64,000 nt of DNA. Origin: a virus (lineage: Duplodnaviria > Heunggongvirae > Uroviricota > Caudoviricetes). This document shows positions 44,199 to 44,546 of the stretch, one piece after another. The stretch lies in the IMG/VR virus record IMGVR_UViG_2721755651_000007, one strand, 5' to 3'. A program made the translations under genes and the position numbers. Each line of letters starts with the position of its first letter. Positions within the stretch are counted from its first letter, which is position 1. The notes below the pieces were generated by a model. It was not told where the DNA came from. It did not search any database and saw only the letters and a list, made by a program, of their open reading frames with translations.

Positions 44199-44546
44199 TC
44201 AGGCCAGCGGTGGAGTCTTCAGAGAACCCGTAATTATTCCCGGTAGTTTTCCTCTGTAGGTTATCAACACATCCTGCGCCTCTAAAATTACGGGGCGCTT
44301 TTCCGGCAACGGACCATCCCCTTCACATAACCCGGCAGCAACATCCATGAAAAACTGCTTCGCCTGCTTTTTCGCCTCAGCTTCGTAAAACTCCAGCGTG
44401 GCACCTTCAGTACGGTCAAGACTAATCGCCACATCTGGCAACAACAGTGACGGATACCCACCAATTTCCGGTGCCACAGTAACAGTAATCTTATCCGGGT
44501 AATTATTTATCCCTTTAACAACCAGTTCGTATTTTTTCTTCATCAC
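44199..44546 (-). CDS. hypothetical protein between holin and endolysin
   Basis: 115 aa ORF, no family recognised. Confidence 0.4.
   Translation of the reverse strand: MMKKKYELVVKGINNYPDKITVTVAPEIGGYPSLLLPDVAISLDRTEGATLEFYEAEAKKQAKQFFMDVAAGLCEGDGPLPEKRPVILEAQDVLITYRGKLPGIITGSLKTPPLA

Follow-up and report, generated by a model that had tools for sequence, protein, structure and literature searches.

The closest described relative of the gene considered here is ydfR of Escherichia coli K-12 (b1555, P76160), which lies on the Qin cryptic prophage in the order essQ (holin)–ydfR–rrrQ (lysozyme)–rzpQ, and K-12 YdfR is the only YdfR for which functional data were found in the literature (PMC13232886). 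It was recovered in a two-hybrid screen, in which residues 1–72 were enough; the full-length protein was positive in the bacterial two-hybrid assay against residues 1–597 of RNase E (Rne), and Rne 1–598 co-purified with tagged YdfR, with DNase-resistant nucleic acid also co-eluting (PMC13232886). In the uninduced lysogen K-12 ydfR is silent (PMC13232886). We describe here a ydfR-family gene on the minus strand of a 64,000-nucleotide stretch of viral DNA (IMG/VR record IMGVR_UViG_2721755651_000007; the whole stretch is referred to below as the window). The element that carries it is a lambdoid prophage of E. coli O157:H7, probably a defective one.

K-12 YdfR belongs to the same Pfam family as the window protein (DUF1327/PF07041) and has the same core-domain pattern. 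The Qin gene order is also that of the window (class II holin–ydfR–lysozyme), and in both elements ydfR begins after the same 4 nt junction past the holin stop codon. The two proteins are 46% identical, but over residues 1–74 only; their tails are unrelated, and K-12 YdfR has the other allele type of the strand 2–3 loop. At the 3′ side the ydfR stop codon overlaps the lysozyme start in K-12, whereas in the window the lysozyme gene begins after a 50 nt spacer.

Family and reading frame of the gene

The minus strand contains an uninterrupted open reading frame (ORF) at 44199–44546 in the ORF list, and an earlier note, made from the letters of the window, had placed a gene here between holin and endolysin. 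This gene is real: the frame is intact in 80 of 80 related loci, which are close copies in viral contigs. The same note gave the product 115 amino acids, as would follow from a start at GTG 44546; that codon is an alternative in-frame start absent from homologues, which share with the Prokaryotic Genome Annotation Pipeline (PGAP) the conserved ATG at 44543, so that the ORF stands and the length is corrected to 114 amino acids. Among the 80 copies there were 20 synonymous and 22 non-synonymous segregating changes, a ratio of non-synonymous to synonymous polymorphism (pN/pS) of approximately 0.35. Between allele types the ratio of non-synonymous to synonymous divergence (dN/dS, or omega) of the core domain was 0.2–0.3, with synonymous sites close to saturation; for comparison, it was 0.08–0.11 for the holin and 0.06–0.08 for the endolysin. 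Given the intact frames and these two ratios, we consider the ORF to be a real coding gene and the core to be its selected part.

The gene had also been described as belonging to no recognisable family, and this has to be withdrawn. Its product matches DUF1327/PF07041 over residues 2–113 (E = 5.5e-46; 155.2 bits against a gathering cut-off of 25 bits) and PHROG 406 (E = 3.8e-64), and is 100% identical to a RefSeq protein named ‘YdfR family protein’ (WP_000731259.1). The window ydfR is therefore already known, being identical to a RefSeq entry and a member of a named Pfam family, and its gene order has been known since the K-12 genome; what is new here is confined to a correction of the annotation. 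The homology and structure search that had been proposed for it was successful in its first part, with the family found, and returned no informative structural match in its second: structural comparison of the 72-residue core domain was uninformative, and the family profile found nothing lower than E = 1 among Protein Data Bank chain sequences. No NCBIfam model matched the window protein. Its best match to the PADLOC defence models was at E = 0.021, with no match for the long alleles, and no Rfam RNA family overlapped the ORF.

DNA similar to the ORF is present in 3007 of 5426 complete E. coli genomes, at up to eight places per genome, and the family is among the commonest E. coli prophage genes of unknown function. 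It is at the same time narrow, comprising 256 clusters in a collection of 5.8 billion proteins and 89 representatives in one of 1.84 billion. In a scan of one genome per species the long-type family was confined to Escherichia; the patterns used in that scan came from the middle module, and K-12-type and 72-amino-acid forms would be missed by it.

The holin–endolysin junction and candidate functions

In phage 933W the holin gene S and the endolysin gene R are adjacent, 4 nt apart, across the same GGGGAGAG-TAA-N4-ATG junction that in the window stands upstream of ydfR as GGGGAGAG-TAA-AGTG-ATG (holin stop TAA at 44548–44550). The window ydfR occupies the slot and the ribosome-binding site that are held by endolysin R in 933W. 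The phage collection contained 434 records with this holin type versus 101 with YdfR, approximately 77% of the holin records being without ydfR; by phage type, YdfR was present in 41 of 47 Shiga toxin (Stx) 1a records, 15 of 17 Stx2c records and 2 of 124 Stx2a records, and the holin type is common to all three. As holin-bearing phages without ydfR exist, both in 933W and in these record counts, lysis by this cassette type needs no ydfR. The GC content of ydfR is 47.8% (also 47.8% at third codon positions), against 54–56% (60–69%) for the flanking genes. An optional gene between conserved neighbours, a differing base composition and relatives in the moron slots of tail clusters together support the view, already put forward in the earlier note, that ydfR is an optional accessory (moron-like) gene, here inserted at the exact holin–endolysin junction.

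A scan for promoters and terminators gave fewer promoter-like sites than shuffled sequence did, with none 5′ of ydfR on its own strand. One promoter-like site inside the ORF on the opposite strand (44261–44288) was non-significant and was rejected. A terminator-like hairpin of 12 pairs followed by a T-run (44802–44830) stands on the gene strand after the esterase gene and 5′ of the holin start, and late transcription would have to pass it by read-through. As read from the sequence, ydfR would be transcribed within the Q-dependent late operon, and the Shine–Dalgarno sequence, holin stop codon and 4 nt spacer predict translation coupled to that of the holin, through the ribosome-binding site from which phages without the insert translate their endolysin. 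The gene is presumably dispensable for lysis. As a side effect, the insert would displace the endolysin start from the ribosome-binding site of the holin, and endolysin translation may drop or become uncoupled.

The protein has a maximum 19-residue hydropathy of 0.89 and a pI of 5.5, with no hydrophobic or membrane segment. Our favoured reading, to which we give a probability of roughly 0.45, is that ydfR encodes a small, soluble cytoplasmic accessory protein that is expressed late and may bind a host cytoplasmic partner late in infection; by analogy with K-12 YdfR the best candidates are RNase E and/or RNA, and such binding would modulate RNA decay. We hold this reading tentatively because its mechanism is borrowed from a homologue. 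Several observations weigh against it. The RNase E data concern a protein of 46% identity over residues 1–74; within those data the two-hybrid signal was limited to Rne 1–597, overproduction of K-12 YdfR altered few transcripts, and by the authors' own account the RNA may have come from a contaminant (PMC13232886). The window protein is mildly acidic, which is atypical for an RNA binder, and direct evidence for translation of the window allele was not found. Finally, all examined E. coli copies lie directly 3′ of a holin gene, as a holin-linked function also predicts.

The holin-linked function that deserves consideration is regulation of lysis timing, a role of the kind raised in the earlier note. 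On this rival reading a cytoplasmic protein produced in step with the holin would bind the charged C-terminal tail of the holin or the membrane-tethered signal-anchor-release (SAR) endolysin and so delay or sharpen triggering, in the manner of P1 LydB and T4 RIII. Soluble antiholin partners encoded beside holin genes do exist (P1 lydB, T4 rIII), and the coupled 4 nt junction past the holin recurs in 80 of 80 viral loci, in K-12 Qin and in phages Evi, mEp460 and PhiR42_1. A screen for envelope leakiness, moreover, picked up the Keio ydfR mutant (supplement of PMC3879167), although we infer that transcription running on from the resistance cassette into rrrQ, the lysozyme gene just downstream, can account for this phenotype as a polar effect. 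We nevertheless consider a lysis regulator unlikely, and favour the accessory protein over it, because most phages with this holin, 933W included, lack ydfR; because YdfR and holin do not co-vary (the Evi holin is 98.6% identical to that of the window but its YdfR only 41%, and in another related locus, L005, the values are 94% and 57%); because distant homologues lie in tail modules, outside lysis cassettes; and because the protein has neither a membrane segment nor any match to a lysis-category PHROG or Pfam family, DUF1327 being its sole Pfam match.

Core domain, tail and the 3′ exchange site

The AlphaFold2 model of the core domain, obtained with a diverse alignment (predicted local distance difference test score, pLDDT, 88.4), consists of antiparallel strands at residues 5–14, 18–27 and 38–43 and a helix at residues 50–72. 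Alignment A3 shows no variation at M1, Y53 or E54, and at least 90% conservation of Y5. Stand-alone homologues of 72–76 amino acids correspond to the core domain alone; in phage Evi a 72-amino-acid form is located directly 3′ of the holin gene. The loop between strands 2 and 3 (window positions 44433–44471; codons 25–37, about residues 25–37) is hypervariable: between allele types nucleotide identity falls to 10% in this loop and is approximately 90% across codons 67–113. The loop may determine specificity, or this stretch may have been exchanged.

The tail is of a different character. Residues 73–114 have an AlphaFold2 pLDDT below 50, the full-length model being poor for residues 71–114, and neither K-12 YdfR nor the 72-amino-acid forms have this tail (alignments A1 and A3). 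Its synonymous divergence (dS) is small (0.13–0.21) and its omega of 0.5–0.9 indicates weak constraint. Across the family the C-termini form a mosaic, with proteins of 103, 104, 113, 114, 116, 162, 176, 183 and 287 amino acids; there are also accidental fusions, in which the holin or part of an antirepressor is joined on. Comparison within the family thus shows the 42-residue tail as a mosaic appendage under little constraint, and points to the N-terminal 72-residue domain as the working part of the protein.

Long alleles carry approximately 460 bp of extra sequence between the KTPP codons and the endolysin gene, flanked by CTGAAGAC and CCACCG repeats; this segment adds a helical extension to the C-terminus of YdfR and contains a convergent gene of approximately 90 amino acids. 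In the window the repeat CTGAAGAC (plus-strand GTCTTCAG) is found at 44195–44202 and 44215–44222, and CCACCG at 44208–44213. Just past the KTPP codons the locus behaves as a hot spot for the exchange of cassettes, the difference between window and long alleles being due to either a deletion or an insertion, and across E. coli lineages this site is occupied by three unrelated partner families (phrog_18136, phrog_2572 and phrog_2411). Convergent genes of about 90 amino acids were located directly 3′ of ydfR in four related loci: L088 (3464–3739), L004 (3500–3766), L003 (3311–3589) and L096, which is phage Evi (3744–4040). Their PHROG families (18136, 2572, 2411 and 25324) are unrelated to one another, and in L088, L004 and L003 the 3′ end of the convergent gene overlaps that of ydfR.

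The 114-amino-acid allele could then be a decaying passenger, that is, the remnant of a larger insertion that is kept by its linkage to the lysis cassette and has no function in this prophage. The extension and convergent gene missing from the window, the high variability of the C-termini, with their fusions, and the omega of the tail would all be in keeping with this. We find it doubtful, since the N-terminal domain is under purifying selection with none of the 80 copies disrupted, over half of complete E. coli genomes keep the family, some of them in several places, and the family is also present in phage genome records such as those of Evi, mEp460 and the Stx1a and Stx2c phages.

Distant homologues of 72–76 amino acids reside in the tail clusters of siphoviruses: for P0176 the position is between gpL and gpK, for P0178 upstream of gpL, for P0184 between tail chaperone and tape measure genes, and for P0177 3′ of a tape measure gene. 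Several of these are then followed by a convergent small gene, and the partner family phrog_25324 is common to Evi, in a lysis context, and to L010/P0177, in a tail context. Conversely, phrog_18136 was found alone, with no DUF1327 gene, in Salmonella and Enterobacter prophages, and DUF1327 stands with no partner gene in the window, in K-12 and in L011. As either can be found without its partner, we rejected an obligate pair of DUF1327 and a convergent gene; the two are most simply read as independent accessory genes sharing insertion hot spots. A two-gene module, in which a late DUF1327 protein would neutralise or regulate the product of a convergent small gene expressed in the lysogen and the window would hold an orphan half, is accordingly very improbable, for although a convergent gene of approximately 90–180 amino acids follows DUF1327 in Evi, L010, L013, L006–L009, L003, L004, L023, L088 and L092, with one partner family in both contexts and a terminator-like hairpin belonging to the L088 partner itself, the partners span at least six unrelated PHROG families and either gene is found alone, a pattern that fits independent insertion.

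The favoured reading of YdfR as a late accessory protein with a host partner can be carried further, to a form that we regard as quite improbable: the 72-residue domain of DUF1327 would be a widespread late phage tool and, by docking on RNase E at its catalytic half and/or on RNA, would protect the long late transcript or redirect RNA decay near lysis, with the strand 2–3 loop setting specificity. If this were true, the related DNA carried by over half of complete E. coli genomes and by Stx1a and Stx2c phages, though by hardly any Stx2a phages, would represent an unrecognised RNase E modulator. Should YdfR tune endolysin translation, lysis timing or RNA decay, the release of phage and toxin could be affected.

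The late region and comparison with known systems

The features of the locus are collected in Table 1. The earlier note named the neighbours of the gene as a pinholin and a SAR endolysin, and the domain matches confirm a holin and a lysozyme at these places. PF04971 is ‘Bacteriophage P21 holin S’ and the PGAP name for the holin is ‘class II holin family protein’. The lysozyme has a Gly/Ala-rich, weakly hydrophobic N-terminal segment and an E-x8-D-x5-T motif at residue 35, which are consistent with a SAR endolysin.

Table 1. Coordinates of ydfR, its parts and the adjoining lysis genes in the window.
Feature	Position	Strand	Details and evidence
ydfR-family coding sequence	44199..44543	-	114 amino acids + stop, ATG 44543; ORF list, PF07041, PGAP coding sequence WP_000731259.1
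Core DUF1327 domain, residues 1–72	44328..44543	-	AlphaFold2 model, alignment A3, stand-alone homologues, sliding nucleotide identity
C-terminal tail, residues 73–114 (CEGDGPLPEKRPVILEAQDVLITYRGKLPGIITGSLKTPPLA)	44202..44327	-	pLDDT, dS/omega, alignments A1 and A3
Shine–Dalgarno sequence GGGGAGAG	44551..44558	-	Within 3′ end of holin gene; sequence reading
ydfR–endolysin spacer and ydfR 3′ end, indel junction	44149..44214	-	Alignment A4 against long alleles; ORFs and PHROG matches
S21-type (class II) holin	44548..44763	-	71 amino acids, Met starts M1 and M4; PF04971 (E = 8e-33), PHROG holin families
Lysozyme with SAR-like N-terminal segment	43615..44148	-	177 amino acids; PF00959, hydropathy and motif search

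Further out, a NanS-p-type esterase gene lies 5′ of the holin, and an antirepressor-like gene and Rz lie 3′ of the lysozyme. The antirepressor-like gene (P22_AR_N and ORF11CD3 domains, 189 amino acids) is found together with a 48-amino-acid ORF at 42629–43344, between endolysin and Rz as in 933W; this segment is a second optional insert of the lysis cassette and many related loci are without it. Genes for tRNA-Arg and tRNA-Ile (47293–47522) occupy the slot in which Stx phages such as 933W have tRNA genes and then stx. As stx is absent here, the element is a non-Stx prophage with the late-region layout of an Stx phage. Between the tRNA genes and the esterase gene (46911–47180) Rfam matched the small RNA STnc100 on the minus strand (46972–47180, 175 bits) and the anti-GcvB small RNA AgvB on the plus strand (46911–46970, 56.6 bits, barely over the gathering score). 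Elsewhere in the window it matched two sok antitoxin RNAs (hok/sok loci), DicF RNA and the ALIL frameshift pseudoknot of an insertion sequence, these matches lying at 3764–3938, 52149–52298, 12461–12512 and 6415–6531.

Set beside the systems already described, ydfR resembles the lambdoid morons (HK97 gp15, lambda bor and lom) as an optional gene of atypical base composition amid conserved late genes, and its relatives occupy classic moron slots of tail clusters. Unlike morons, the window ydfR has no detected promoter or terminator of its own, and it is co-oriented and, as predicted from its junction, translationally coupled with the late operon; the K-12 gene, for its part, is not expressed from the prophage in uninduced cells (PMC13232886). 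With P1 LydB and T4 RIII the likeness lies in small size, a cytoplasmic location and a gene next to that of a holin; the differences are that no sequence or profile similarity to them was found, and that YdfR is inconsistently present with its holin type and has homologues outside lysis cassettes. Several phage proteins target RNase E, namely phiKZ Dip, T7 gp0.7 and T4 Srd. If the K-12 result applies to the window allele, YdfR would be like these in binding RNase E, a comparison made by description only; it would differ from them in that binding by K-12 YdfR was reported to the catalytic N-terminal half of the enzyme.
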